In this document: positions 2,082-62,035 of the stretch, piece after piece
Position numbering within the stretch: the stretch's first letter is position 1
Layout: each line of letters begins with the position of its first letter
IMG/VR virus record: IMGVR_UViG_3300049052_000033
Coordinates: 1-64,000 of that record
Length of the DNA stretch: 64,000 nucleotides
Strand: one strand, 5' to 3'
From: a virus
Taxonomy: Duplodnaviria > Caudoviricetes
Made by a program: the position numbers and the translations under genes
The notes under the pieces: generated by a model
Seen by the model: the letters and a program-made list of their open reading frames with translations, nothing else
The model's database searches: none
Told to the model about the DNA's origin: nothing

Positions 2082-3596
2082 GTGATGAACGCCGTAAGGA
2101 ACCACATGGAAGAAGACGTCGCACAACAACCCGCCGATCCACTCGACGCTATCTGGACGGGCGATCACCTCGGGCGCCGGGCCGACGCCGCCTACCTGTC
2201 GAAGTACTTGGCGAATCGCCATCTGCTAAAACCCGACGAGCCCGGGTTCGTGCTGGCGGTCAATGCCGACTGGGGCGTCGGTAAGACCTTCATGGTGCGC
2301 AACTGGTGCAAGCAAGCCGAGCACGAGGAACATCCTGCTGTCTGCTTTGACGCCTGGGCCAATGACTTCAGCAAGGAACCGCTGATCGGTTTCATTGCCT
2401 CGCTGGATGCCGCGCTGAAACCGCATTATGCCAAGGTCCCAGCTGCGCAAAAGCTGCGTCGTGAATTGCTTGCAGCAGCCAAGCAGATCGTCATGCCAGT
2501 TACCAAGGTCGTGGGCGCTGCCGCGAGTAAAAAGGTGCTGGGGCTCACCATGGACCAGGTTGCCGACCTATTCGACGGCGACAACGGGGACGACCACACG
2601 AAACACGAGGGCGGGGCCGTGTCCAAGGAAGATTTCCAGAAAATCGGCAAGGACCTGAGCAAAGCCATGGAAGATGCCTTGAAAGCGCACCAGTCGACGG
2701 CCAGGGCGATCCAGGCCTTCAAGGACAAGTTTGGCTTGCTGATCGCGGCGCTCCGCAAGGAAGCCAACGTCCAGCTGCCGGTCTACGTATTCGTGGATGA
2801 ACTGGACCGTTGCCGGCCGGACTACGCGATCGCACTGCTGGAAGGCATCAAACACCTGTTTGGTATTCCAGGTTTGTACTTCGTCATCGCCACCAATATC
2901 GAACAGCTGGCGCATTCCATTAAGGCCGTTTATGGCGAAAGCTTTGACGCAGTGCGCTACCTCAAACGCTTTTTTGACATGGAGTTCACGCTTCCGATAC
3001 CTGACACGACTAAGTTCGCCATCGAGCTGCTGTCAAAAATCATTGCTCCCGATCCGCAACATCAAGTCTGGGGCTTCAATCAGGTTCTTCCCCAGTTCCC
3101 GCTTCCCGCTGAGGAATGGCTGCCATATACGTTTGTCCGCTATGCGCGTGCCTTCCGATTGGAACTGCGCGACATGCAGCAGGCCGCCCATATTCTGGAG
3201 GCATGTTTCCTAACCATGAAAAGCCAGCAGATCCACATGCACTGGCTCATCTTTTTGGTCGTTCTCTACCAGCGTGATACGACGCTGTACCACCAGGCAG
3301 TGAAGCAGAAACAAATATTGCCGGATCTCGTGAGCAAGCTTGATACCAACAACGATTTGCAGTTTGTGGTCCCGGCGCATCAAATGGGTTGGGAGAACCC
3401 GCCCACAAAGAATGTCAACATCCTTACGGTCATTGAGCCTTTTTTCTCGGCACTGCGTGGGAACGTAGTTGAGTCAAAGCACGACGTTTCGCATACTTTC
3501 CCCGACAACTTGGGAGGCAGCATAAAGCGCGCGCTGCATGATGGCGCAATCCATAGTTACACTGAATTGGTGCCACGCGCTGGGCGCTTTACCTAA
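2082..3596 (+). CDS. KAP-family P-loop NTPase
   Basis: Walker A ADWGVGKTF, FDAW motif, Walker B VFVDELDRCRP, YLKRFFD motif. Confidence 0.9.
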   Translation: MMNAVRNHMEEDVAQQPADPLDAIWTGDHLGRRADAAYLSKYLANRHLLKPDEPGFVLAVNADWGVGKTFMVRNWCKQAEHEEHPAVCFDAWANDFSKEPLIGFIASLDAALKPHYAKVPAAQKLRRELLAAAKQIVMPVTKVVGAAASKKVLGLTMDQVADLFDGDNGDDHTKHEGGAVSKEDFQKIGKDLSKAMEDALKAHQSTARAIQAFKDKFGLLIAALRKEANVQLPVYVFVDELDRCRPDYAIALLEGIKHLFGIPGLYFVIATNIEQLAHSIKAVYGESFDAVRYLKRFFDMEFTLPIPDTTKFAIELLSKIIAPDPQHQVWGFNQVLPQFPLPAEEWLPYTFVRYARAFRLELRDMQQAAHILEACFLTMKSQQIHMHWLIFLVVLYQRDTTLYHQAVKQKQILPDLVSKLDTNNDLQFVVPAHQMGWENPPTKNVNILTVIEPFFSALRGNVVESKHDVSHTFPDNLGGSIKRALHDGAIHSYTELVPRAGRFT

Positions 3597-28542: not shown

Positions 28543-31500
28543 ATGAACCTGAACGAAGCACGCCAACGAATTCCGGCCCTGGCCAATCTCAACGATCAGG
28601 ACGCAATCGACGTCCTGCAACAGCACTACTATCCCGATATCGACAAGGCGCAGCTGGCGCAGGCCTTGGGCGTGCAAACGCCCCAGGTCGACCCACCGCA
28701 GGCTGGCGTACTACGCACGGCCGGCGATATGGGGATCAAGGTGGCACAGGGCGTGGTTGGACTGGGTCAGGCCGCTGTCGGCCTGGGCAGTCTGGCCACG
28801 GGCGGGCTGGTCGGCAAGGGCGCGCGCGCGCTGGGCTACGATCCGCAGCGCACCAAGGAAATCCTGGGTGAGTACCTGAGCGATAGCCAGAAAGCGTCCG
28901 ATGCCAAGGTCGCCAACGCCGATGGCTTCGTGGACACGATCGCCGCCTCCCTGTCCAACCCGCGCGCGCTGTTCGGCAGCGTCGCCGAATCGGCCCCCGG
29001 CATGTTGGGAGGCATGGGCGTGGCCCGTGCTGCAGCCGGCAAGATCGCCGCGCGCGCCGCACTGGCCCCCACCGAGGGCGCCGCCGCCAGCGCCGCAGAA
29101 CTGGCGGCAGGGCGTTCCGCCGCTTCGGCCGCCCAGGCAGCCCTGCGCACCAAGGCTGGCGCGCAGGCGGCCACCGACGCCGTCGAGGCGGCCGGTACCC
29201 GCCTGATGGTCACCGGGTCCGCCGTGGAAGGGGCCCAGACTGCGGGCCAGATTGCCGACGACGCGCAAGCGGCCGGCCGCAGCTACGGCGAATACGCCTT
29301 GCCGGCACTGGCAGCCGGCGTCGGGACAGCCGCCATCGGGGTGGGCGCCGGCAAATTCATGGGCGACAGCGCGACCCAGCTGGCTACCGGCGCGCGATCG
29401 ACGGGCGTGCGCGGCAGCCTGCCGGCGCGCATTGCCAAAGAGGCGCTGAGCGAGGGTGTACTGGAGGAAATGCCCCAGTCGGCGCAAGAACAGGTGTGGA
29501 CCAACGCCGCCATGGGCGAGGCCGACCTGTCCAAAGGTGTCGGCAATGCCGCCGGCGCCGGGCTGATCACGGGCGCTGCCATGGGCGGCGGTCTGGGCGT
29601 GCTGCAGGGGGAAGCGCACCACGCCCCCACGCCGGCACCGGTTCAGCTGCCCAACACCGGACCGCTGTCACAAGCAGCCAACGCCGGGCAAGCCGCAACA
29701 GCCGCCAAGGCCCAAGCCAACGCCACGGTGCCGCAGGCCCCGAGCCCAGCCCAGCCATCGCTGCAGGAAATTGACGACAGGATGGCCGCCCTGGTCGCGA
29801 TCGGCTCCGGCAGCCTGGCACGCAAAGAGCGCGACGCCGCCGGCAACCTGGTGACGATCCCGGCCGTGGCCGGGCGCCGCCTGACGACGGACGAAATCGC
29901 CGAATACAACCGCCTGAAGCAACTGCGCACCGAGCGCACCACCCTGACGCCCGCCCAGCAGGCAGAATTCAACCAGCTGCTGGCCGCCGAACAGGAACAG
30001 CACAACGCCAAGCATGCCGCAGCCATGGCCGCTGCCGCCGAGCAGCGTAACAAGGCTGAGGACGCCGAACTGGCCTCCTTGATGGCGCAGGACGAACGCG
30101 CGCGCCAGCAGGCCGAAGCGCAGCAGCTGGCCGACGCGATCGCCGCCAGCGACGCGCGGGTGGCCGCCGGTGACGCGCGACGTGCCGCCGACAAGCGCGC
30201 CGACCTGCGCACGGGGATCATCAATGATGCGGGCATTGCCGTGGCCGATCGCAAGCAGGCGTTCGCCGATCGTCTGCGGCAGGAGGGCTATCACAGCACC
30301 GCTTTGACCGACGACGATCATGCCGATTTCGACCAGGCCGCCGCGCCGCTGTCCAGCGCGCCCAACGAACTGCAGGACGCGGTCCCGGAACGCGTCGCAC
30401 CGCCTGTTGCGACTGCGGACACACCCAACCTGCGCGCGGTGGACGACGCGATCGCCGCCGGCATGCGCCTGAAAACGGCCAACGGCAAGGTGCTGCACAA
30501 GCCCGGGTCCAGCAAGATTTTCCGCCTGAACAGCGCGCAGCTGGCCTATTACCAGGAAGCGATCAACCGCCCGGCAGTGGCGCAACAGGCGCCCGCGCCG
30601 TCCACGGCCGTCCCCACGGTCGAACCTGTGAGCCCGGCGCCCGAACAAACCGCGGCCTCGCCGATGCTGGCCAACGCCCCACCCATCGCGCCGGCCAGCG
30701 ACGACGGCTTTGACGCCGCTGCCCATGCGGCGGCGACCTCGCCCCACAACGACCTGCCCGAGCCGACCCCAGCCCAAAAAGAGGCCGGGAATTACAAGGT
30801 CGGCCATGTCAGGCTTCATGGGCTGGACCTGTCCATCGAGAACCCCGTGGGGTCCGTGCGCCGCGGCGTCGACCGCGACGGTCAGGCGTGGGAGTCCACC
30901 ATGCAGCACCATTACGGCTACATCAAGGGCACGGTAGGCGCCGACAAAGACCACATCGACGTGTTTGTGGGGCCGAACCGCGACAGCGACAAGGCGTTCG
31001 TAGTCGACCAGGTGCATCCCGACAGCGGCAAGTTTGATGAACACAAGATCATGCTGGGCTTCGACTCCGTCGAGGCGGCGCGCGCCGGCTACCAGGCCAA
31101 TTACGACGCCAGCTGGACCGGCGGGCGCAACATCAGCGAAACGAGCATCGCCGGACTGAAGGACTGGCTGGCCAGCGGCAAAACCCGCAAACCATTTACC
31201 AAACTCCCATCCGCCGCCCCGGCAGCGGAACCGATGGTCGCCGTGACTCCACCGGTGTCCCGCCAAGCGCTGAACCACCTGACCGTCGCCGACATGAACG
31301 ACGACCAGCTGCTGCAGGCCAGGAGCGTGTTTGCCGGACATGCGCGCGAACCGAAGATCCTGCGCGAGCTGGTGCGGCGCGGGCTCGACGCGTCGGCCGC
31401 CGCACCGGGCGCGCCTGCGCCTGCAGCGGTCACGCAGACCGACTCCGCCACCACGAGTGTGGAACCCGATGCCTCGGGCAAACTTGCCAACGCCACGGCG

Positions 31501-34500
31501 CCGGAACACGTTCAGACCGGCGTCGATGACCGGGAGCTGGGCGAAATCGTCGCCGAGTTCAATGAGGCACAGGCGGAGATGATGGAGGGCGACCACGTCG
31601 TGTCCAACATCTTCCAGCCGCCGGCCAAGCGCGACATTGTGCGACTGGCGGACAAGGCGAAAGGCAAGCTGTGGAACCCGGTCGAGGTGAAAGCCTACAA
31701 CAAGGACCTGGCCGCACGCGACGAGCTGGAAAAGGAAGGTCAGCCGGTACCGGCCGAACTGGCCAAGCGCATCAGGGACTTCGAAGCCGTGTATCTGCCG
31801 CATGTGGCGAAGCTGCAAGCCGAAGCGCAGGCCGAAATCGGCGCGTGGAAGGCGCACGCGCAAGCACAGGGCCTGGACCCGGAAACACGCCGCGCCAACG
31901 GCCGCAAGATCGTGCTGTCGCTGTTCGACCTGTCCGGCGAATGGTCCAAACCATGGCTGGAAGCGGGCTATCAGGTGTATCGCTTTGACATTCAGGACGA
32001 TCCCGAAGTGGGCGACGTCAACAACTTCTCGTCGGAATTCTTCAGCGACTGGTTCGGTGACTTCGACGGACTGGATATTTACGCCATCCTTGCCGCCACG
32101 CCGTGCACCGACTTCGCCGTCAGCGGCGCGCGCCACTTCGCCGCCAAGGACAAGGACGGCCGCACCGTGGCCAGTGTCAAGCTGGTGCACCAGACCATGC
32201 GCACCATCGAGTACTTCAAGCCTGTCATCTGGGGCATTGAAAACCCGGTCGGGCGCATCGAAAGCCTGGGCGGGCTGCCGCCATGGCGACTGGCATTTGA
32301 CCCGAACCATCTGGGCGACTCGTACACCAAGAAAACCCTGATCTGGGGACGCTTCAACGCCGACCTGCCGGTCGCTCCGGTCGAGGCGACCGAAGGCAGC
32401 AAGATGCACAAGCAGTACGGCGGCAAGAGCATGGCCACCAAGAATGCGCGTAGCGTGACACCGGAAGGGTTCTCGTATGGCTTCTTCATGGCCAACAACG
32501 CCGTCGACCACCCTGTGATGGCGGTGGCCAACACGTTCGACCGTCTGGACCGTGACGCGATCGCCGAAGCCATGCGCGCCGGCGTGACGGAAGAAGAAAT
32601 CCGGGACGCCGTGCAGGACCTGTACTACATGGATCTGGACGACGATGCCGCCAACGACGCCATCCGCGCCCTGACCCGTGAGCACGCGACCGAGCCGGAT
32701 CCAGATCCGTCGCCGACCCAACCCCGCGGCAAGCAGGACGACACCGTGTCAGCCCCTGACGCGACACTGGCCGACAAAGCGGGACCGGCGGGCGATGACG
32801 CAGTGGCCACCGCGGCGCGCGACGATGCGCTGCAGTTCTCGCGGCGCCGTATCGACACCGACGACCAGCTGGTGAACATCTACAGCCAGATCGCGCAGGA
32901 CGACGCGGCCTTCCGCCTGCCCGACAGCCAAGGCAAGACGCTGGCCGCTGTCGTGGGCGACATGGCACCCGGTATCGTGGTCGATGGCGATGTTGAGATC
33001 GACCTGACCACGGCCGACGGGCCGAACGCCGACCGCGTCTGGCGCCTGCGCCGCGGCGACGGCGCCGGTGGGGACGCCCTGGTGTTCCGCAACACGCGCA
33101 ACAAACAGGTCTGGCTCAATATTTCGAACTGGAAGGAGGGCCGTAGCGGCCACCGCATCTACCAGGCGATCGCCACCTGGGCCCACAACACCGGACAGGT
33201 ATTCATCGGCGACCCGGATGGTCTGTCCGATAAGGCGCTGTACCGTCGCACCGAGCAAATGCTGTCGTCCGCGCTGCGCCACGGCACCACCGAGCACTTG
33301 GCGCCCCACGCACGCCAGGTCGAGGACACCCGCACCCACACGGGTACACCGGTGCGTCCGATTCATTGGCGCGAAGGCAACGATGCACGCAACTTGCGGG
33401 AACTGCTGGTTTCGTCCTACACTAACATTTCTGCAATTTTCCCTGAAATCGAACGTGTCCATTACAACTTCGCCACTGGCCAGTTTGAACGCCTCCCGGC
33501 ATCCGTTCGCGCACCTGAGCACGATGTACTGGCTCACGCTGCCGCTGGCGGAGAACGCGCTGCTGAAGAAGGGGTGGGACGCGGAAGCGATCGAGGCGCT
33601 GCCGGACACGGAATTGCTCGCGCTGATGAAGCAGACGGGCAGTTCGCACGAGTGGATGCAGTTCCTTTCACCGACGAGGATTTCGCAGCTCTTGTCCGGG
33701 AAGTTCGAACAGCTTATGAACAGTTCTACCCATCCTCCCGAGGAGCTTACACGCCACCGGTTGGCGTGTCTGATCTTAAGAGAGCGGCACTTACCGGCAC
33801 CGTTCTACGCGCAGAAGGAAGCGACGCAGGGCGAACGGTTCTGGATCACGTTGCAGAGCGGCTGCTACAACGAGTAAGCATCCCGCTGGAGTCGCTGCTG
33901 TATAGCCGCGACGCCGCCTATTTCCGCCACGACGACGCCTTCGCCCCGCCAGCCATTGAGCAGGGCGATACGGTCGGCGACACGCCGCCGGCCGCACTGG
34001 CCGGGCATGAGTACGTCCAGGCGCTCAAGGACACCGAGCAGCTGAACCGCCGCCTTGCCGGCGAAGGCATGGCGCCGGTCAAGGCGCTGCGCCAGGCCCC
34101 CACCACGCAATTCGCCATGGCGCGCCAGATCGGCAAGGCCTTGGGTATCCGGGTCCAGTTCGTATCGGGCAATGGCGACTTCGAAGGAGTTGCCACCGGC
34201 GGGGTGGCCTATCTGGCCAACGATATGCGCCAGCCTGCACTGGCCATTGCCGGCCACGAGACCCTGCACGCCCTGGAGCAAAGCAATCCCGCACTGGGCG
34301 AGCGCCTGCGCGCGCAGATCCGCAGCTACCTCAAGGAAGGAGTGGTGGATGACCGGCAGGCGCGCGAATATGCGGCCAGCGGCTTTCAGGAAGTCACCGA
34401 GCGGCAGGCCGAAAGCGAGGTCCTGGCCGATATCAACGGCGCCATGTGGCTGGACCCGGGCTTCTGGGCTGCATTGGCCAAGGCCGACCGCTCGCTATTC

Positions 34501-37500
34501 CGCACGGTGGCCTACAAGTTCATGGAAGTGGCCACGTCCCTGCTGGCGTCCCTGCGCCGCGGACGGTTCGACGTGACGCAACTGGTGTCGGACGTGGATG
34601 CGGTGCGCAACATTATGGTGGCGACCTGGGCCGAGCATACCCGTAGCCGGGACGCACTCACGCAAGACACAGCGCGCCGCGCGGTGCCGGTCTATGCGCC
34701 GGCACTGGACGGCTTAGTGGCGCCAGAACAGCAGCTGTCGACCGACGCGCTGCACCAGCTGGCGGACGCGGTCGTAGCGCCGCTCGCGCATCCGCCGCAA
34801 ATCTTCGTTCTGGATGGCCCGGAATTCCTCGACCGTCATCTGGTCGGGGCTGGCGAGGCGCCAGTGAGCGCGGGGGCGACGATCGGCGGCAAGATTTACC
34901 TGTTCCGTAACGGCATTTCCAGCCGGGATAGCGCGGCGGCCACGATCTGGCATGAGTTGTTCCACTATGGGCTCCGAAAACTGATGACGCCGGATAATTA
35001 TGTTTCGGCAATGTCGAAATTGTACAACATCGACCCACAGGTGAAGGCCTACGCCGATCGCTGGAAGGCGACCGAGGATGCGGCGACGCGCCATCGGTCC
35101 GGGGTCAGCGTGACCGACATGCACGTGCTGGCGGTGGAAGAAGCGCTGGCCGTGATGGCCGAGGAACAGCGCAACGGCAAGCCGGTCGGCACCCGCTATG
35201 CCACCGAAAGCCACATCGGCCGCATGCTGCTGTGGATGGTCAATACCGCCCGCAGCATGGGTCTGGACCGCGTGGCCGAAGCGCTGCGCAAACTGACCCG
35301 GGCGCAGGGCCAGGTGTTCGTGGAAAGCATTTTCGACCGCATCGCCGCCGGCGAACGGGAAGTCGAGGGTGCCATGGCGTCGCTCGACGGCCGCAGCATC
35401 AACTTCCGCGCAGCCGATGGTGCCCGACCTGCCACGGACAGCGACAACTTCCGCGCCTGGTTTGGTGATAGCAAGGTGGTGGACAAGGACGGGGAACCCT
35501 TGGTGGTCTACCACGGCACCACCCGTGACTTTTCCACGTTCGATATCGGCGAACCCTTCGGCGACAAAGAGGCAGGCGCGTTCTTCACCGCCGATCCGGG
35601 CGCCGCCAGCGCCTACGCGCACAAGGAAGGCGGGCGCGTCATGCCGGCATTCCTGCGCATTGAGCACCCTTACGTCACCACGGTAGAGGACTGGGAAAGC
35701 GGCGCGGCCAGTTCAGTGGACGCCATCAAACACGAGGGCCGGCATGATGGCTATCAGGTGAAAGGCTGGTCGGACGCGGGCGACATGTGGATCGCGTTTG
35801 AGCCCGAGCAGATCAAGTCCGCGATCGGCAACGACGGCAGCTTCGATGGCGAGAACCCGGATATCGCGTTCAGCCGTGCAGGGCTGGCCGCGGCGCTGGG
35901 CAAGGCCGCCGGCAACATTGAAAACGTGCGCCTGCCCGCCGGCTACCTGCTGGGCGACCTGTTCAACCGCAGCGGCAAGATCAGCTGGTGGCATAAAAGC
36001 ATCGGCACCATGGACAACCTGGCGCGTCGCCAGCCGCTGTTCGCGCCGGTGTACCGTGCCGTGCAGGGCTTCCTGGGCGACGTGTCGCGCTATGCCGTCG
36101 TGGCAGCCAACAAGGCCCCCACCCTGTTGCCGAAGCTGGAAAAAGTCGCCGACATCCTGGGCAAGGACCGCAAGAAGCCCTTGACGGCGGAGGACACCAA
36201 GGCCATCAGCGCACCGATCTTCGAAGGCACGCTGGTGTGGGCGCGCGACGCCCACGGCAAACCGGTCAAACTGGCCGAGCTGGAAGCATGGGCCGACGGC
36301 CTGACGACCGCCCAGAAGGCCGATATCCTGCTGCAGAAGGGCATCATTGATGACGAAACGAATCAGGCCTGGCTGCACAGCCCGCTGGATCACTACGATG
36401 AAAGCATCAATCGCCGCTTCACCACCACGCAGCTGCAGGCCGGCGTGGTATGGAGCGATGCGGAGCTGCGCGAGCTGTTCCAGCTGGACGACCGTCGCAT
36501 TGGCCTGTACCGCGAATTCCGCGCGGCGCTGGACCAGAGCCTGACCAACCTGACCATCAGCGAGATGGTCAAGCTGGGCGGCAAGGATGCCGAAGGCACG
36601 CTGGACTACGCCATGGCGCAGCCGGACCTGCGCGGTGCTGCGCATTACCTGCGTGATCATTTCGTGGCGCTGGCCAAGCTGCACCCTGAAAAGGCGGACT
36701 GGCATCTGGATACGGCGCGCCAGATCATGGACCTGGCCGACCGCGGCCAGGACCTGATGGACCGTGGCTACGCGCCACTGTCGCGTTTTGGCAAGCACAC
36801 CGTCTACGTGCAGCAGGGCGGCGACCAGGTGTACTTCGGCATGTTCGAAACCCCGTATGAAGCCGCCCGCATGGCGCGCCAGATGGAATCCGAGCACCCG
36901 GGCGCCGACGTGTCGCAGGGCACGGTCTCCGAAGATGCCTACAAGCTGTTCGCCGGCATCGCTCCGGAGACCATCGAGCTGTTCGGTTCCATGGTCGGGC
37001 TCGACAGCCAGGGTGACAGCGCAGGCAGCGAGGTGTACCAGTCGTACCTGAAACTGGCCAAGAACAACCGCAGCGCGATGAAGCGCATGATCGAGCGCAA
37101 GGGCATCGCCGGCTTCTCGGAGGACGCCGGCCGCGTGCTGGCCTCGTTCATCTATTCGAATGCCCGCCTCACCTCGGGTAACGCCAATCTGGGCAAGATT
37201 GACGAGGCCATCACCACCATTCCGAAGCAGGAAGGCGAACTAACCGACGCCGCCATGCAGCTGCGCGAGACCATCCGCAATTCCGAAGGCGGCAACCGGC
37301 TGGGCGGCCTGATGTTCGCCCAGTTCCTCGGTGGGTCGGTGGCATCCGCCCTGGTCAACCTGACGCAGCCGGTGACCATGACCTTGCCCTACCTGAGCCA
37401 ATATGGTGGTATCGGCAAGGCCGGCCAGCGTCTCGCCGGCGCCATCCGCGATGCCGGCAAGCGCAGCACGGGCGACGCGAGGCTGGACGCAGCGCTGCAA

Positions 37501-38799
37501 TGGGCCGCTGACGAAGGTATCGTGGCGCCGCAGGAAGTGCACTACCTGCAGGCGCAAGCGGCCGGCAAGGGGGCTTTGCAATCGGGCGATGGCACACGGG
37601 TCGGCAACGCCCGCGCGCAGCTGAACAACGCCTTGGCCAAGGTCCAGCTGGGCTGGGGCAAGTTGTTCGCCATGGCGGAGGAAGCCAACCGCCGGATCAC
37701 CTTCATTGCGGCCTACCGCACGGCCATCGAGGAAGGCAAGTCCGACCCGGCCCGCTTCGCCGAAGAAGTCGTGACGCAGACACAAGGTACCTACAACAGC
37801 GGCAACCGACCGAAGTGGGCGCGCAACCCGGTCGGTGGCGTCCTGATGACGTTCAAGCAGTACTCCATCGGCTATCTGGAGCTGTTGACACGCATGGCTT
37901 TCGCCGGCCCACCAGGTTCGCCCGAGCGTGCCGCCGGCCGCCGCGCGGCGCTGTACATGGTCGCCGTGCTGTTCCTGATGGCGGGCGCCGATGGACTGCC
38001 GTTCGAACAGGACCTGGAAGACGCCTTGGACGGCGTCATGCAGTGCCTCGGCTACAACTTCTCCACCAAGCGCGCCAAGCAAGAATTCCTGACCGGCGTG
38101 CTGGGCGCGGGCGGCGCCGACTTCGTGCTGAAAGGCGTGTCGAGCATGCCGGGCATGCCGATCGACGTGGCAGGGCGCTTCGGCATGGGCAACTTGATTC
38201 CCGGTACCGGCCTGTTGACGAAGAAAGATTCGTACACGCAGGACCTGGGCGAGCTGGTCGGCCCGGCGGGTGACGTGGCCAAGCGCACGTTCGCCGCCGC
38301 AGGCAAGCTCCTGGGCGGTGACGTCGCCGGCGCGGCGCTGGACATGTCGCCGGCAGCCGTGCGCAACGCCGTCAAGGGTGCCGACATGCTGTCGACCGGT
38401 CATTACTCGGACGGGCGTGGCTACAAGGTCAACGACACCACCCCGATCGAAGGCGTGCTGAAGATCGTCGGCTTCCAGCCAAACAGCACCGCGAATATCC
38501 AGGATGCGAAGGGGCAGGCGCTCGACATGATTAGCCAGACCCGGATGCGCTCCAAGGAGATTCAGGAGCACTGGGCGCAGGGTATTCTGGAAGGCGACGC
38601 CAGCACCATCGCCGAGGCCCGGGCGTGGCGCGACGACTGGAACGCCAAGAACCCGGAAGCGCCGGTGCGCGTGAATATGGCGGCGATCGCCAAGCGGGTG
38701 CGCAACATGCGTCAGGACGTGATGAACCGCACGCAGAAGACGGCGCCGGCCGCGCTGAAGGCGGCCGTGCGCAGCGAACTGTCCGAAACACGCGGATAA
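28543..38799 (+). CDS. Giant polyvalent internal virion protein (3418 aa; InPase-like, C5-MTase-like, two zincin, ART-like and PLxRFG domains)
   Basis: AQKEAGNYKVGH...HYGYIKGT.GAD.DHIDV (InPase-like, ~30770-31170); LSLFDLSG...ATPC...IENPV (MTase-like, ~31900-32510); HETLH (34255) and HELFH (34951); NFRAWFGDSKVVD..GEPLVVYHGT (ART-like, ~35440-35880); GYAPLSRFG (~36770). Confidence 0.9.
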   Translation: MNLNEARQRIPALANLNDQDAIDVLQQHYYPDIDKAQLAQALGVQTPQVDPPQAGVLRTAGDMGIKVAQGVVGLGQAAVGLGSLATGGLVGKGARALGYDPQRTKEILGEYLSDSQKASDAKVANADGFVDTIAASLSNPRALFGSVAESAPGMLGGMGVARAAAGKIAARAALAPTEGAAASAAELAAGRSAASAAQAALRTKAGAQAATDAVEAAGTRLMVTGSAVEGAQTAGQIADDAQAAGRSYGEYALPALAAGVGTAAIGVGAGKFMGDSATQLATGARSTGVRGSLPARIAKEALSEGVLEEMPQSAQEQVWTNAAMGEADLSKGVGNAAGAGLITGAAMGGGLGVLQGEAHHAPTPAPVQLPNTGPLSQAANAGQAATAAKAQANATVPQAPSPAQPSLQEIDDRMAALVAIGSGSLARKERDAAGNLVTIPAVAGRRLTTDEIAEYNRLKQLRTERTTLTPAQQAEFNQLLAAEQEQHNAKHAAAMAAAAEQRNKAEDAELASLMAQDERARQQAEAQQLADAIAASDARVAAGDARRAADKRADLRTGIINDAGIAVADRKQAFADRLRQEGYHSTALTDDDHADFDQAAAPLSSAPNELQDAVPERVAPPVATADTPNLRAVDDAIAAGMRLKTANGKVLHKPGSSKIFRLNSAQLAYYQEAINRPAVAQQAPAPSTAVPTVEPVSPAPEQTAASPMLANAPPIAPASDDGFDAAAHAAATSPHNDLPEPTPAQKEAGNYKVGHVRLHGLDLSIENPVGSVRRGVDRDGQAWESTMQHHYGYIKGTVGADKDHIDVFVGPNRDSDKAFVVDQVHPDSGKFDEHKIMLGFDSVEAARAGYQANYDASWTGGRNISETSIAGLKDWLASGKTRKPFTKLPSAAPAAEPMVAVTPPVSRQALNHLTVADMNDDQLLQARSVFAGHAREPKILRELVRRGLDASAAAPGAPAPAAVTQTDSATTSVEPDASGKLANATAPEHVQTGVDDRELGEIVAEFNEAQAEMMEGDHVVSNIFQPPAKRDIVRLADKAKGKLWNPVEVKAYNKDLAARDELEKEGQPVPAELAKRIRDFEAVYLPHVAKLQAEAQAEIGAWKAHAQAQGLDPETRRANGRKIVLSLFDLSGEWSKPWLEAGYQVYRFDIQDDPEVGDVNNFSSEFFSDWFGDFDGLDIYAILAATPCTDFAVSGARHFAAKDKDGRTVASVKLVHQTMRTIEYFKPVIWGIENPVGRIESLGGLPPWRLAFDPNHLGDSYTKKTLIWGRFNADLPVAPVEATEGSKMHKQYGGKSMATKNARSVTPEGFSYGFFMANNAVDHPVMAVANTFDRLDRDAIAEAMRAGVTEEEIRDAVQDLYYMDLDDDAANDAIRALTREHATEPDPDPSPTQPRGKQDDTVSAPDATLADKAGPAGDDAVATAARDDALQFSRRRIDTDDQLVNIYSQIAQDDAAFRLPDSQGKTLAAVVGDMAPGIVVDGDVEIDLTTADGPNADRVWRLRRGDGAGGDALVFRNTRNKQVWLNISNWKEGRSGHRIYQAIATWAHNTGQVFIGDPDGLSDKALYRRTEQMLSSALRHGTTEHLAPHARQVEDTRTHTGTPVRPIHWREGNDARNLRELLVSSYTNISAIFPEIERVHYNFATGQFERLPASVRAPEHDVLAHAAAGGERAAEEGVGRGSDRGAAGHGIARADEADGQFARVDAVPFTDEDFAALVREVRTAYEQFYPSSRGAYTPPVGVSDLKRAALTGTVLRAEGSDAGRTVLDHVAERLLQRVSIPLESLLYSRDAAYFRHDDAFAPPAIEQGDTVGDTPPAALAGHEYVQALKDTEQLNRRLAGEGMAPVKALRQAPTTQFAMARQIGKALGIRVQFVSGNGDFEGVATGGVAYLANDMRQPALAIAGHETLHALEQSNPALGERLRAQIRSYLKEGVVDDRQAREYAASGFQEVTERQAESEVLADINGAMWLDPGFWAALAKADRSLFRTVAYKFMEVATSLLASLRRGRFDVTQLVSDVDAVRNIMVATWAEHTRSRDALTQDTARRAVPVYAPALDGLVAPEQQLSTDALHQLADAVVAPLAHPPQIFVLDGPEFLDRHLVGAGEAPVSAGATIGGKIYLFRNGISSRDSAAATIWHELFHYGLRKLMTPDNYVSAMSKLYNIDPQVKAYADRWKATEDAATRHRSGVSVTDMHVLAVEEALAVMAEEQRNGKPVGTRYATESHIGRMLLWMVNTARSMGLDRVAEALRKLTRAQGQVFVESIFDRIAAGEREVEGAMASLDGRSINFRAADGARPATDSDNFRAWFGDSKVVDKDGEPLVVYHGTTRDFSTFDIGEPFGDKEAGAFFTADPGAASAYAHKEGGRVMPAFLRIEHPYVTTVEDWESGAASSVDAIKHEGRHDGYQVKGWSDAGDMWIAFEPEQIKSAIGNDGSFDGENPDIAFSRAGLAAALGKAAGNIENVRLPAGYLLGDLFNRSGKISWWHKSIGTMDNLARRQPLFAPVYRAVQGFLGDVSRYAVVAANKAPTLLPKLEKVADILGKDRKKPLTAEDTKAISAPIFEGTLVWARDAHGKPVKLAELEAWADGLTTAQKADILLQKGIIDDETNQAWLHSPLDHYDESINRRFTTTQLQAGVVWSDAELRELFQLDDRRIGLYREFRAALDQSLTNLTISEMVKLGGKDAEGTLDYAMAQPDLRGAAHYLRDHFVALAKLHPEKADWHLDTARQIMDLADRGQDLMDRGYAPLSRFGKHTVYVQQGGDQVYFGMFETPYEAARMARQMESEHPGADVSQGTVSEDAYKLFAGIAPETIELFGSMVGLDSQGDSAGSEVYQSYLKLAKNNRSAMKRMIERKGIAGFSEDAGRVLASFIYSNARLTSGNANLGKIDEAITTIPKQEGELTDAAMQLRETIRNSEGGNRLGGLMFAQFLGGSVASALVNLTQPVTMTLPYLSQYGGIGKAGQRLAGAIRDAGKRSTGDARLDAALQWAADEGIVAPQEVHYLQAQAAGKGALQSGDGTRVGNARAQLNNALAKVQLGWGKLFAMAEEANRRITFIAAYRTAIEEGKSDPARFAEEVVTQTQGTYNSGNRPKWARNPVGGVLMTFKQYSIGYLELLTRMAFAGPPGSPERAAGRRAALYMVAVLFLMAGADGLPFEQDLEDALDGVMQCLGYNFSTKRAKQEFLTGVLGAGGADFVLKGVSSMPGMPIDVAGRFGMGNLIPGTGLLTKKDSYTQDLGELVGPAGDVAKRTFAAAGKLLGGDVAGAALDMSPAAVRNAVKGADMLSTGHYSDGRGYKVNDTTPIEGVLKIVGFQPNSTANIQDAKGQALDMISQTRMRSKEIQEHWAQGILEGDASTIAEARAWRDDWNAKNPEAPVRVNMAAIAKRVRNMRQDVMNRTQKTAPAALKAAVRSELSETRG
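33524..33877 (+). CDS. Candidate nested (+1 frame) 117-aa gene inside the giant gene
   Basis: Third-position G/C bias moves from the main frame to the +1 frame over this stretch; weak RBS. Confidence 0.4.
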   Translation: MYWLTLPLAENALLKKGWDAEAIEALPDTELLALMKQTGSSHEWMQFLSPTRISQLLSGKFEQLMNSSTHPPEELTRHRLACLILRERHLPAPFYAQKEATQGERFWITLQSGCYNE

Positions 38800-44263: not shown

Positions 44264-44305
44264 TTACAACAATTTATTGTAAGCGATTTAAATAAATAAT
44301 TGAAG
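44264..44305 (-). promoter_or_regulatory. Sigma70 promoter overlapped by CI-type operators
   Basis: Minus-strand TTCAAT-N17-TACAAT; operator TTACAAC-AATTT-ATTGTAA (44264-44282) plus a half-conserved copy at 44287-44305. Confidence 0.7.
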
Positions 44306-58183: not shown

Positions 58184-58233
58184 CTACAACAAATAGTTGA
58201 AGTTCAGCGAGTATATATCAATTTTTCGGTGTA
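58184..58233 (-). promoter_or_regulatory. Leftward sigma70 promoter with a CI-type operator just downstream
   Basis: Minus-strand TTGCTA-N16-TATACT; operator CTACAAC-AAATA-GTTGAAG at 58184-58202. Confidence 0.6.
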
Positions 58234-58335
58234 GCAAGTGCTGCATTCCGGCAAACCTGAATTCCGTTATACAAAATCAGCTTTCAGGAGTTGCAAATAA
58301 GGCTATATACTTTGCCCGAAGCATTGGAGATTTAT

Positions 58336-59343
58336 ATGTCCCGGCTGCCCCTATACCGACACCCAACGACAACCGTCATTCTTGACGAGTCGCAGCACCA
58401 CATTCACGCCGTGCCAACCGAGCTGGATACCCAGCACCCGACCGTCACCTTTACGAATGCGGCGGATGCCGTCGAATACATCACCGGGGCGCAGGCGATG
58501 ATGGACCATGCACGCAGCCCGATTGCCCTGGATCCTGTGGCGCCGGCGGCTGGCGTTCCGGTCGGGTCGCTTTCGGACGGGCTCGACCACATTTACGGCT
58601 ACGTGCAGGACCCGCAGCGATTCTGCGCGCCGGCAGTCGTGGTCGTTGAATACTCGCGCGCCGCCGGCGGGGGCATGGAGTTTTGCGAGGAAATCGCGCA
58701 CCTGCCCGTCAAGTGCATCTGGCGGTCCCGTGCCGCGGAGCAGCACGATGGTATTGCGGCCTATCAGCGCGGCCTGGTCAATCGGTTTGTGCAGCGCGAA
58801 GCGGGCTGGGCCAGCCGCGGCCTGTTGGAGTCCGTGGAAATGCTCGAGCACGAATACTTCGTGGAGCTATCCCAGCGCCTTCCGGGGCACATCCTTGATA
58901 CTGCGTCCTATCGCTTCCTGCAGGACCCGGCATTTGCCTCCCTGGTGCAGGAGCAGGCCGACCGCTATGGATTCGTCGAGCACTACCTGTTCACGGCACC
59001 CAGCGGCCTGTTGTTTTTCGACGCCGATGGGCATGCCACCTTGATGGTCGTCCAGACCGAAGAAAGCTTGGCCACCCAGTTCGAAATCGCGCGTGACGCG
59101 CAGGCACCGGTGCGCCTGTTGCAGGACCTGTTCAAGTGCAGGGTGGTGCCGTTTTTCGGCACGGAGGATGGCATGTACTCCGACCAGCTGGAGGACGATC
59201 CATGCAGCTATTGCCAGCCGGCGCTCGTATGTCGCGGAAGCAGCGACTACTACTGGGCATTGTTTGACGTGCCGCCCGGTATGCGAAAGGGCCAGGCCTT
59301 CCCTTATGCCCGGTATCGCGAGACAGGCCCGCTACGCGGTTAG
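58336..59343 (+). CDS. LqsR/JqsR-family response regulator homolog with an atypical receiver domain (Asp replaced by Glu)
   Basis: P.T.V..D(E)S N-terminus, P.RF...VVVVEY...GMEFC..I, GIAAYQRGLVNRFV, EYF, FL.DPAF, VEHYLF...SGLLFFDADG follow the recalled LqsR pattern over ~335 aa; GGAG RBS. Confidence 0.8.
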   Translation: MSRLPLYRHPTTTVILDESQHHIHAVPTELDTQHPTVTFTNAADAVEYITGAQAMMDHARSPIALDPVAPAAGVPVGSLSDGLDHIYGYVQDPQRFCAPAVVVVEYSRAAGGGMEFCEEIAHLPVKCIWRSRAAEQHDGIAAYQRGLVNRFVQREAGWASRGLLESVEMLEHEYFVELSQRLPGHILDTASYRFLQDPAFASLVQEQADRYGFVEHYLFTAPSGLLFFDADGHATLMVVQTEESLATQFEIARDAQAPVRLLQDLFKCRVVPFFGTEDGMYSDQLEDDPCSYCQPALVCRGSSDYYWALFDVPPGMRKGQAFPYARYRETGPLRG

Positions 59344-59348
59344 GGCCG

Positions 59349-60245
59349 CTACGATAGAAGGCCCAAGCGCACCGCTGCATCGACAATCTGGTTGGTGGTC
59401 TCGACGCCCAGCTTTCCCTTGATCGCCTTAATGCGGCGGTCAATGGTCGGAATGCTCACGCCCATGAAGGCAGCAATTTCTTTGCGCAGGCGGCCATTCT
59501 TCAGGTAGGCAATGATCTCCACGTCATTCGCCGGAATTCCGACTTCGTCTTGCTCCTGCGCTGAGGCCGCACGGGCAGCTTGCAATCGCCCCAGCAAGGC
59601 ATGCGCGGCGTGGGCCAGCATGATCAGGTTTGGCTCCATTTGCGCCAGCTCGACCGGGTCAATGTCCGGATCTGCGCGCGATAGGACCAGAGTAGCCAGG
59701 CCGTCATCGGAGCGGAGCACCCAGCCAGAGCGAATACCGTGCCGGCTCGCCAGTGACCAGAACGCCGGGTTTTCTGCATGGCGTTCTCGCGCGGTCCATG
59801 TGGTTGGCCCTGTCATTTGGTTGACGCGTGGATCGATCAGGACAAGTTGTTCCCGATCGTAGGCCTCGCGCCATTCCCGCAGGTGATTGTGTTCTACCAC
59901 CATGTCGCCTGGGTCGCGCGCAGAGTGGGCCACGCCCAGCGTGGTGCCGAAACCGAATTTCTCGCGCGCCAGCTTGGCGATCGCCGAAAACTGCTTGTGA
60001 TCGGGCAGGTCTTGCAGTTCACGAATGATGCGTTTGCCCCACCGGTTGGTCCCGTCGCGGTGCTCGATCGGCAAGGTGAGCGGCGCGTCGCGCGCCTGGC
60101 GCTGCACTCGTTCCGCCGACAGGATGCGTTGATGAATGGTCTTGAGCTGCAGCCAAGGCTGCCAATCGACACGGCGACGAATCCTGCGCAGCACGAAACT
60201 GGCGAACTCGCCGGCCGGCACCGGCATGCCCGTGCTCTCCGACAT
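59349..60245 (-). CDS. LuxR-family regulator (autoinducer-binding domain plus HTH), orphan, with N-terminal extension
   Basis: W125, Y129, D138, P139, W150, G174 match the conserved AHL-pocket W/Y/D/P/W/G set; C-terminal LuxR HTH (KEIAAFMGVSIPTIDRRI..IKGKLGV). Confidence 0.88.
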   Translation of the reverse strand: MSESTGMPVPAGEFASFVLRRIRRRVDWQPWLQLKTIHQRILSAERVQRQARDAPLTLPIEHRDGTNRWGKRIIRELQDLPDHKQFSAIAKLAREKFGFGTTLGVAHSARDPGDMVVEHNHLREWREAYDREQLVLIDPRVNQMTGPTTWTARERHAENPAFWSLASRHGIRSGWVLRSDDGLATLVLSRADPDIDPVELAQMEPNLIMLAHAAHALLGRLQAARAASAQEQDEVGIPANDVEIIAYLKNGRLRKEIAAFMGVSIPTIDRRIKAIKGKLGVETTNQIVDAAVRLGLLS

Positions 60246-60505
60246 AGCGTAATGTTCGACGTGATGCCATGCGGCGGGATGACGAACCGTCGAAGGCTAT
60301 CATCGTAGTACCAGTGCCATCGGACCCACACATCCGGCTGATAGCTTCCACGCCATTCAGCGAATCCCGCTATCAGGACCGGGAAAAGGCGCTTCAATTG
60401 CTCCAGCAGCTGGTCGTCCACGTCGATCGTCAGGCGGCGCTGCGCGATGCGCTTCAAGGCTGCGCGGGTCAGGCGCACTTCCTGGTCGTGGGTTGAGCCG
60501 GTCAT
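60246..60505 (-). pseudogene. Upstream coding segment that appears frameshifted relative to the LuxR ORF
   Basis: 87 high-GC3 codons from ATG 60505 (MTGSTHDQ); the coding signal switches frame at ACG CTA TGT / ATG TCG with no stop codon. Confidence 0.45.
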
Positions 60506-60724
60506 GTCGTTGCCTGTGTGGCGAAATGCGTGTGGGGACGGACAAGCGGGTGTTACCAAGCCTATCACGAAAGCTATCACGTCCTTGATAGTTTAAGCTC
60601 AGCTGTTACATTGTCACAGTGCGCTTAATTGATAGCTAACAGGTGTTGCCTTGGCGCCATCGGCGATGCCAAGATACTGACCTCGTTTCTTGACTTACAT
60701 CAACAATCGTAAAGGTAGCGTTCG

Positions 60725-60985
60725 ATGAGTAAAGTGGTATCCCGCCTGACCCGCATTGCAACCGGTAGCATGACCTCTGATCGTACTGAAGCCGCGGCGC
60801 TCTACGCCCTGGCACAAGCCTATCGCCGCGCGTCGCGGGCCGATCAGGCCTATTTACTGGCGGTGGCCCAAGACCTGGGCCGTGGCGAAGATTTGGAAAT
60901 GGAGCAAGTCGTGGCCCGCATGCCGGCGCCGGCTTCCCGTGGAAGGTTACGCTTGGTTCAGGGCGGCGGGCGGCAGAGCCGGTAA
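60725..60985 (+). CDS. Small protein resembling the CI C-terminal domain (candidate antirepressor)
   Basis: AAAGG RBS; residues 28-51 align ungapped with CI residues 106-129; divergent from luxR and convergent with cI. Confidence 0.6.
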   Translation: MSKVVSRLTRIATGSMTSDRTEAAALYALAQAYRRASRADQAYLLAVAQDLGRGEDLEMEQVVARMPAPASRGRLRLVQGGGRQSR

Positions 60986-61393
60986 CTCCCCTGCAGGCTT
61001 TTTCTCAATCCGTGCGGCCGACAGCAGCAGCTGTCGCTGGCCGGCATCGGTGCCCATGCGGAAGTGGTGCAGCAGTTCCATCTCCTTCGTCCCCTCGACG
61101 AAAACCAGCAAATACTCCGGCTGCTGCCGACGCGGGCCGGTGGGGATCGTCTGGACCTGGCCATCGATGTCGCCATACAACAAGTAGGATTCGGTCACCC
61201 CGAAGTGCATGGCCAGCTTGGTCAGCATGGCAGGGCGTGGAAGCTGCGGGCCAGTCAGCCATTTGCTGACCGCTTGCGGCGAAGTCCCGACGATGCGCGC
61301 AAGTTCGGACTGGTTGCCGTCGTGATATTCGTGCAGTAAGGCTCTGAGGCGGTCCGCGAAAGTTTCCGGCGCCTTCTCTTTCATTTGTTCCAT
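60947..61393 (-). CDS. cI: CI-like XRE/HTH repressor without an S24 autopeptidase domain
   Basis: FADRLRALL...NQSELARIVGTSPQAVSKW HTH; only 148 aa; divergent from cro. Confidence 0.88.
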   Translation of the reverse strand: MEQMKEKAPETFADRLRALLHEYHDGNQSELARIVGTSPQAVSKWLTGPQLPRPAMLTKLAMHFGVTESYLLYGDIDGQVQTIPTGPRRQQPEYLLVFVEGTKEMELLHHFRMGTDAGQRQLLLSAARIEKKPAGELPALPPAALNQA

Positions 61394-61402
61394 TGCAATA
61401 GG

Positions 61403-61469
61403 TTACAACGTTTCGTTGTAAATGGCACTTCAATATTTTGTTGTAGAAACCCCTCTGTTGTTTTAATAT
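61403..61469. promoter_or_regulatory. cI/cro operator pair and rightward promoter
   Basis: TTACAAC-GTTTC-GTTGTAA (61403-61421), CTTCAAT-ATTTT-GTTGTAG (61428-61446); TTGTAG-N17-TAATAT (61441-61469). Confidence 0.8.
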
Positions 61470-61504
61470 TTTGGTTCAATAGTTTTTGCCAATGGAAACA
61501 GGAA

Positions 61505-61702
61505 TTGAGTACAGGAATAGCAAAGGCAGTGGAGCTTGCCGGCAATTCGCAGACAGGCCTCGCTAAAGCCATCGGGTTGACCCCGCAGGCCGTACAGCGC
61601 TGGGTGTCGCTGGGCCGCACTTCCGCGCAGGGCGCTGTGCTGATTGAAAAGGCCTACCCGGGCCGCATTACGCGCGCCGAACTCTGTCCGATCTTCGCCT
61701 GA
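61505..61702 (+). CDS. cro: Cro-like repressor (YdaS type)
   Basis: TTG start; KAVELAGNSQTGLAKAIGLTPQAVQRW HTH; TRAELCP C-terminus. Confidence 0.85.
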   Translation: MSTGIAKAVELAGNSQTGLAKAIGLTPQAVQRWVSLGRTSAQGAVLIEKAYPGRITRAELCPIFA

Positions 61703-61732: not shown

Positions 61733-62035
61733 ATGACCAACGAAACCACTGCAGTAGAGACTGAACTGGAATTCTCGCGTTCCTCGCTACTTGACGAGGT
61801 TCAATTATCTCCGGAAGTGACCAGCCGGTCACGCAAGAATCAATCGGTAATCTTGCAAAAGATGCAGGAAGTGACGGGCGTTGAGTTGGCGGCCCGCATG
61901 GGCTTCCACGAATCCCAGATTTCGCGCTTCAAGAATGGCCCGTTGCAGTTCGCTGCCTGCCTGCTGGCAGCAGCAGGCCTGAAAGTGGTGCCGGCCGACG
62001 CCGTGGTCTATGTCAAGCCGACCGAGTACGAATGA
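61733..62035 (+). CDS. cII: CII-family transcriptional regulator
   Basis: SRKNQSVILQKM...LAARMGFHESQISRFK...LLAAAGLKVVP; position after cro. Confidence 0.8.
   Translation: MTNETTAVETELEFSRSSLLDEVQLSPEVTSRSRKNQSVILQKMQEVTGVELAARMGFHESQISRFKNGPLQFAACLLAAAGLKVVPADAVVYVKPTEYE

Follow-up and report, generated by a model that had tools for sequence, protein, structure and literature searches.

A putative quorum-sensing receptor and small open reading frame in the immunity region of a Massilia-type phage-plasmid

Gene content and control DNA of the locus

We analyzed a 64,000-nucleotide (nt) stretch of viral DNA (Caudoviricetes; hereafter the window), which covers bases 1 to 64000 of the 72,364-bp IMG/VR record IMGVR_UViG_3300049052_000033. 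The element is most likely a circular temperate phage that is maintained as a plasmid in Massilia-like Oxalobacteraceae, bacteria of soil and water. In the region considered here, two genes related to bacterial quorum-sensing (QS) regulators, lqsR and luxR, adjoin a cI/cro-type switch. The order is lqsR-like (+), luxR (-), a control region of about 220 bp, a small open reading frame (smORF) of 86 amino acids (aa) (+), a short cI (-), and cro (+). The initial annotation had listed these genes in this order, and each was found in its place with the identity proposed. Coordinates are collected in Table 1.

Table 1. Features of the candidate immunity region (window positions)
Feature	Position	Strand	Remarks
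Left operator pair	58184-58202 CTACAACAAATAGTTGAAG; 58216-58234 TATCAATTTTTCGGTGTAG		Around a leftward promoter-like site
LqsR/JqsR-family pseudo-receiver, 335 aa	58336-59343	+	Glu105 at the phospho-acceptor position
LuxR part of the split receptor, 298 aa	59349-60245	-	Last ~30 DUF4902 profile positions, autoinducer-binding domain, GerE-type helix-turn-helix (HTH)
RsaM-like (DUF4902) N-terminal part of the receptor	60246-60505	-	ATG at 60505; shifted frame continues to 59894
Shared control region	60506-60724		Left edge is the ATG (60505) of the DUF4902 receptor ORF
smORF, 86 aa	60725-60985	+	Core FD..S.AS..YLL.VA, C-terminal LRLV; 39-nt overlap with the cI 3' end
cI-type repressor, 148 aa	60947-61393	-	N-terminal HTH_3 and a short conserved C-terminal domain
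Right operator pair	61403-61446 (TTACAACGTTTCGTTGTAA; CTTCAATATTTTGTTGTAG; starts 61403/61428)		Between cI and cro
Cro-like HTH protein (YdaS/HTH_3)	61505-61702	+	TTG start at 61505 inferred from 66-72 aa homologues
CII-like regulator	61733-62035	+	Phage_CII; phrog_725, E = 2e-17

The order lqsR / rsaM-luxR / smORF / cI / cro recurs in at least 10 related phage-plasmid lineages of 72-87 kb, of which three come from Massilia isolates (L003, L004, L005/6, L007-10, L011, L014/L017, L026, L037, and the P0013 contig), and with it the synteny with cI that the initial annotation had singled out beforehand for comparison among relatives. The QS/immunity block of L005 (14545-17281) is whole, but it is joined to a different partition and replication set (a MipZ-like ParA and Rep3) and to a PemK/MazE pair, which points to modular exchange of the plasmid backbone.

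A 19-bp pattern, YTWCAAY-N5-RTTGWAR, has six matches in the window where 0.11 would be expected. Of these, two fall in the interval from cI to cro, and one is upstream of lqsR, accompanied by a second, weaker site. In most relatives, these left sites are found approximately 133 and 101 nt upstream of the lqsR start, and in the window the left pair brackets a promoter-like site on the minus strand (58237-58210). Judged by this arrangement, the locus is most likely a lambda-like immunity region, with four genes bracketed by two cI operator pairs. Two further operator copies (TTACAACAATTTATTGTAA and TTTAAATAAATAATTGAAG) lie far from it, at 44264-44305, and suggest a third cI-controlled promoter.

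The control region between the receptor gene and the smORF is real, as are the repeats that the initial annotation had seen in it, and it is conserved across lineages. It carries TGATAG/CTATCA repeats at 60562, 60574, 60586, and 60630, a palindrome (CTGTTACATTGTCACAG) at 60603-60619 that is unique in the window, and a conserved element at 60630-60680 composed of TGATAGCTAAC and GTTGCC-N17-19-GGCAA. The corresponding spacer of all lineages holds a TGATAG-N4/5-CTATCA palindrome, an adjacent lineage-variable palindrome, and TGATAGYTAAC followed by GTTGCC-N17-19-GGCAA. None of the control-region motifs has a further copy anywhere in the 64 kb, and the luxR-smORF region contains no cI operator within one mismatch of the 19-bp pattern. 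The variable palindrome shows no co-variation with the right operators, which hardly differ between lineages. A reading of the palindrome as a LexA box was rejected; its form, CTGT-N9-ACAG, departs from the N8 spacing, and other lineages do not keep the palindrome in this form.

The receptor and the LqsR-like protein

In the window the receptor gene is divided between two ORFs, which tile an intact 387-aa homologue exactly. DNA alignment with relatives located a 1-nt deletion between 60245 and 60246, where the G of a conserved CTG codon is absent. The LuxR part matches the autoinducer-binding family of LuxR-type N-acyl-homoserine lactone (AHL) receptors above the cut-off (Autoind_bind, PF03472; E = 6e-15). 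Its GerE HTH is weak (17.6 bits against a cut-off of 23.5), while that of the homologue P0002 passes with 28.1 bits. The closest PDB structures for this part are QscR and RhlR. The upstream piece matches DUF4902 (PF16245) with E = 1e-9 over profile positions 2-83 of 118, and the intact homologue does so with E = 2e-10 over positions 4-112; the window ORF also matches the BcRsaM structure 4o2h (E = 1e-4). Receptor homologues are 378-391 aa long, with DUF4902 preceding the autoinducer-binding domain. By these domain matches the receptor is a chimeric RsaM(DUF4902)-LuxR protein, a feature that the initial annotation had overlooked.

Alignment with QscR revealed that the pocket equivalents of TraR W57, Y61, D70, P71, and W85 are retained; for TraR G113, a Gly is present in the aligned HGIRSGW segment. 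The equivalent of TraR Y53 is His in the window and His or Phe in relatives. The recognition helix is conserved across lineages. The same DUF4902/autoinducer-binding/HTH architecture, in the same genus and with no adjacent luxI, is that of the Massilia RsaM-LuxR chimera listed as "type 8" (Venturi et al. 2023, PMC10710839), and the two are probably members of one gene family. The chimeras in that listing come from two Massilia species and are placed in no phage context; in contrast, the receptor described here is carried by a phage-plasmid, between an LqsR-like gene and a smORF-cI-cro switch.

The 335-aa protein encoded next to the receptor has no Pfam match. A phmmer comparison aligned its residues 4-278 with the response regulator of PDB entry 6sy9 (E = 6e-21), which we take to be L. 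pneumophila LqsR, in keeping with the Asp108 numbering offset. The homology extends over the full length, receiver and LqsR-specific output domain alike, with 25-46% identity to chromosomal members, which sit in lqsA-lqsS-lqsR clusters. Glu105 aligns with the Asp of VVVVDY in 6sy9, and the acidic pair (DD), MPxMxG, Thr, and Lys positions of a phosphorylatable receiver have decayed. Going by these residues, the protein is a homologue and not a working phospho-receiver. In the characterized system, the acceptor of LqsR is Asp108, phosphorylation by LqsS/LqsT leads to dimerization, and the autoinducer inhibits the kinases (PMC5289986).

All close relatives have Glu at the acceptor position except one lineage, which has Ala, and conservation is stronger in the output half of the protein than in its receiver half. 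More distant phage-plasmid copies retain the Asp and a Response_reg signature. A maximum-likelihood tree set the phage-plasmid copies apart from the chromosomal ones (support 96/91) and united the Glu/Ala forms as one clade inside them (99/99), a topology in which the non-Asp variant arose once, within a clade specific to phage-plasmids. Compared with LqsR of Legionella, JqsR of Janthinobacterium/Massilia, and PhcX of Ralstonia, the protein is homologous over its full length with a well-conserved output half; unlike them, it is virus-carried, belongs to its own clade, has Glu or Ala as acceptor, and has no kinase or synthase gene nearby. A search of the available papers found none naming LqsR together with phage-plasmids, and we believe this to be the first virus-borne LqsR/JqsR lineage.

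Approximately 25-35 nt upstream of the lqsR-like start is an invariant GGCTATATACT (58296-58312), present at the same place in all relatives. By eye it has no good -35 hexamer; an activator-dependent promoter is one possible reading, a binding site another.

The small ORF and control of the switch

A profile search of 1.84 billion representatives recovered about 20 small proteins that share both the core and the tail of the smORF product. The C-terminal LRLV is invariant, and its codons vary synonymously across five lineages, which indicates selection at the protein level and speaks for a protein-coding gene. In every context recovered, its 3' end overlaps by 12-51 nt the 3' end of a gene for a 136-148 aa HTH repressor. 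This constant overlap could also mean that the smORF acts mainly as RNA or through convergent transcription, by antisense or interference against the cI mRNA. We consider such a role very improbable, since a frame of 57-96 codons is preserved in the ~20 clusters and indels occur in multiples of three, in addition to the synonymous changes under LRLV.

The initial annotation had pictured the smORF product as a mimic of CI. Profile-profile comparison of the two (hhalign) gave a probability of 0.1% and E = 0.48, so there is no detectable similarity and the idea of a mimic was dropped as unsupported. A predicted complex of cI and the smORF product scored 0.24 against a mark of 0.32, which is evidence neither for nor against binding. 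The most likely role of the smORF product is that of the antirepressor of the switch. Elsewhere in the family, a third cluster (P0035) has the truncated smORF end that is also seen in two Massilia isolates (below), and the orthologue on an 87-kb replicon (L026 8907-9155) is intact. A third Massilia genome, G034, carries a more divergent lqsR and rsaM-luxR pair (L019, L029) with no recognizable smORF adjoining; no chromosomal LqsR match was found in it at E <= 1e-10.

As the initial annotation had stated, the repressor lacks a RecA-activated protease domain. A Pfam scan of cI returned HTH families only and no S24 peptidase, and Peptidase_S24 (PF00717) was found nowhere in the 72-kb record, with positive controls in nine of 14 genomes. 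Because it has no autocleavage domain, cI cannot respond to RecA on its own, and a small antirepressor may be the main induction route.

The layout found here, a transcription factor (TF) gene and a counter-oriented small ORF that share a promoter region in a plasmid-like temperate phage, is that of the TF-smORF modules described for phages Apop and ARM81ld. In these, an xre-luxR operon together with N-butanoyl-homoserine lactone (C4-HSL) activates a counter-oriented smORF, whose product inactivates cI without cleavage and leads to lysis (Silpe et al. 2023, PMC10432266). In both cases a plasmid-like prophage encodes a LuxR-type receptor close to par genes, and a small unannotated ORF that runs in the opposite direction lies 150-220 nt upstream. 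Both also lack a phage luxI and have a cI; inactivation of cI by the smORF product is non-proteolytic in the published cases. There are also differences. Apop and ARM81ld are linear, while the present element is circular and combines a portal of the SU10 type with a ColE2-like Replicase/PriCT_1; no protelomerase turned up in it, although no search was aimed at one. It has no XRE partner; its receptor carries a fused RsaM/DUF4902 domain instead. The candidate module is part of the immunity region, its smORF overlaps cI, and an LqsR-family gene is attached. Finally, the smORF product has no sequence similarity to anything named.

Neither a LuxI nor an LqsA-type synthase is encoded in the record, so the element only listens. 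A LuxI-type synthase is present in 29 of the 36 Massilia species representatives, including a carrier strain, and Massilia antarctica is reported to have jqsA/S/R (PMC9028926). Two of the three host genomes examined contain a chromosomal LqsR copy beside the one of the element. The separate alpha-hydroxyketone system that the initial annotation attributed to the host thus exists in the genus, together with AHL synthases.

Because the layout matches the published TF-smORF modules, we rate an induction pathway from AHL receptor to smORF to cI as the most likely explanation, with about an even chance of being correct. Host AHL would bind the LuxR domain of the receptor, which would then activate the smORF promoter. 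As a built-in modulator, the RsaM domain of the receptor may gate this activation, as the XRE partner does in the Aeromonas phages. The smORF product would inactivate cI without cleavage, transcription into the cI 3' end may add interference, and Cro and the lytic genes would come next. Alongside, the LqsR-like protein would lock or block the host alpha-hydroxyketone (Lqs/Jqs) pathway or modulate the receptor. Each of these regulatory steps, and its sign, is read from the sequence by analogy.

Several observations weigh against the pathway. The receptor gene is frameshifted in the present record, interrupting DUF4902, and the QS module may be impaired here if the deletion is real rather than an assembly error. 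His or Phe at the Y53 equivalent may mean that the ligand is not a standard AHL. In CCM 9210 and CCM 8695 (L011 12535-12782; L014), the smORF itself is frameshifted just before LRLV. The syntenic elements are all related phage-plasmids, whose shared gene order may have been inherited from an ancestor and need not show that the genes work together. L038, a related 71-kb phage-plasmid, has no receptor gene and carries the smORF immediately next to its left operators, from which it follows that the smORF is able to act independently of LuxR, perhaps under cI control. Lastly, the unique palindrome covers the -10 of the smORF-directed promoter-like site, a position that suits repression as well as activation.

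The last point also bears on the sign of the response. The central palindrome is covered by two promoter-like sites that diverge and overlap; it coincides with the -35 of the receptor-directed one as well, and in AHL circuits RsaM proteins act as negative regulators (PMC10710839). High-density signals could then stabilize lysogeny, with the receptor repressing the smORF or the smORF product supporting cI. Prophage LuxI/LuxR systems that drive lysogeny are reported for Phaeobacter in a preprint (bioRxiv 10.64898/2026.07.02.736140). However, the promoter calls are consensus matches only, the characterized phage LuxR-smORF modules induce lysis (PMC10432266), and some antirepressor is required where cI has no cleavage domain. 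An inverted sign appears distinctly improbable to us.

The smORF is always convergent with cI, and L038 keeps smORF-cI-cro while both luxR and lqsR are absent. From this layout we conclude that smORF-cI is the core and that the two QS genes were gained or lost as one unit, a cassette that sits between the left operators and the smORF. The cassette could therefore serve lysogenic conversion, in which the RsaM-LuxR solo and the LqsR-like protein reprogram host QS behaviour (for example pigment, biofilm, or defence) without being inputs of the switch, with the smORF tied to cI and the left operators independently of these two genes. An immunity region is the usual place of genes expressed in the lysogen, no operator overlaps the conserved element upstream of lqsR, the hosts retain a chromosomal LqsR of their own, and the RsaM review regards the Massilia chimera as a bacterial LuxR solo (PMC10710839). 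This explanation is possible but rather unlikely: the receptor is always divergent from the smORF across a shared region with conserved palindromes, which is the published TF-smORF layout (PMC10432266), and no further copies of the candidate operator motifs are present in the window.

For the LqsR-like protein, which is probably made in the lysogen, the simplest role is that of an interferer with, or a mimic of, the host alpha-hydroxyketone pathway. Direct input into the switch is possible, the only specific argument for it being co-inheritance with the receptor. A fuller scheme would be a two-channel viral QS cassette. Here, RsaM-LuxR would trigger the LRLV antirepressor, while the LqsR lineage would have passed from an Asp form eavesdropping on LqsS/JqsS to a phosphorylation-independent Glu sub-clade, with both channels acting on the switch. 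We regard this scheme as doubtful. If it were true, RsaM would for the first time have a defined partner and mode of action.

The initial annotation had suggested that the convergence of two signal chemistries on one switch would be new. Such a convergence could occur here, but the claim needs tempering. The VqmA(Phage)-Qtip system of phage VP882 has a different receptor family and ligand, 3,5-dimethylpyrazin-2-ol (DPO), and the second circuit of that phage is host-encoded, not phage-encoded. The VP882 repressor is also RecA-cleavable. Control of the VP882 decision by two QS circuits is already known (PMC11315295), and LuxR-smORF-cI modules have been published (PMC10432266). What is new are two components of a known kind of system, the LRLV smORF family and the phage-borne LqsR lineage.

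Phage receptors for host quorum signals were previously described from a few linear plasmid-like phages of Vibrio and Aeromonas. The pathway favored here, from AHL receptor to smORF to cI, would extend the TF-smORF principle to circular podovirus-like phage-plasmids, to Oxalobacteraceae hosts, and to a repressor without an SOS-cleavable domain, in an element that may time its outbreak by listening to the host. It would also place the Massilia RsaM-LuxR chimera on a phage switch, a tractable system for the mechanism of RsaM. The natural Asp-to-Glu series of the viral LqsR lineage should likewise be useful for understanding how alpha-hydroxyketone signaling is read or subverted.

The element and its relatives

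The final 126 nt of the record are identical to nt 10-135, and because of this repeat the assembly closes on itself. The record is labeled "linear", and its opening 9-17 nt look like an inverted assembly artefact. Virion genes are encoded (SU10-type portal, capsid protein, and a tail-fibre chaperone domain) together with a Replicase/PriCT_1 initiator, ParA, and ParB, and the element is therefore a phage-plasmid; a tyrosine recombinase is present as well. These findings bear out the circular phage-plasmid assumed in the initial annotation.

Related elements of 71-87 kb are present in metagenomes and in three Massilia isolates, namely Massilia sp. CCM 9210, Massilia frigida CCM 8695, and G036 (M. 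frigida genus set), in the last of which the element is a separate replicon of 87,120 bp. The matches that blastn returned from phage and plasmid collections were confined to PAPS-reductase and Dam. Viral contigs scanned with single sequences yielded nothing, and scans with alignments recovered only two IMG/VR contigs that were already included. In L038, a 142-aa ORF opposite the smORF belongs to no family and looks spurious.

Two further genes were observed in the window. A KAP-family P-loop NTPase (2082-3596; E = 2.5e-32), possibly a defence or accessory gene, lies just upstream of the portal and capsid genes, and a single ORF of 3,418 aa occupies 28543-38799 on the plus strand within the virion gene block.

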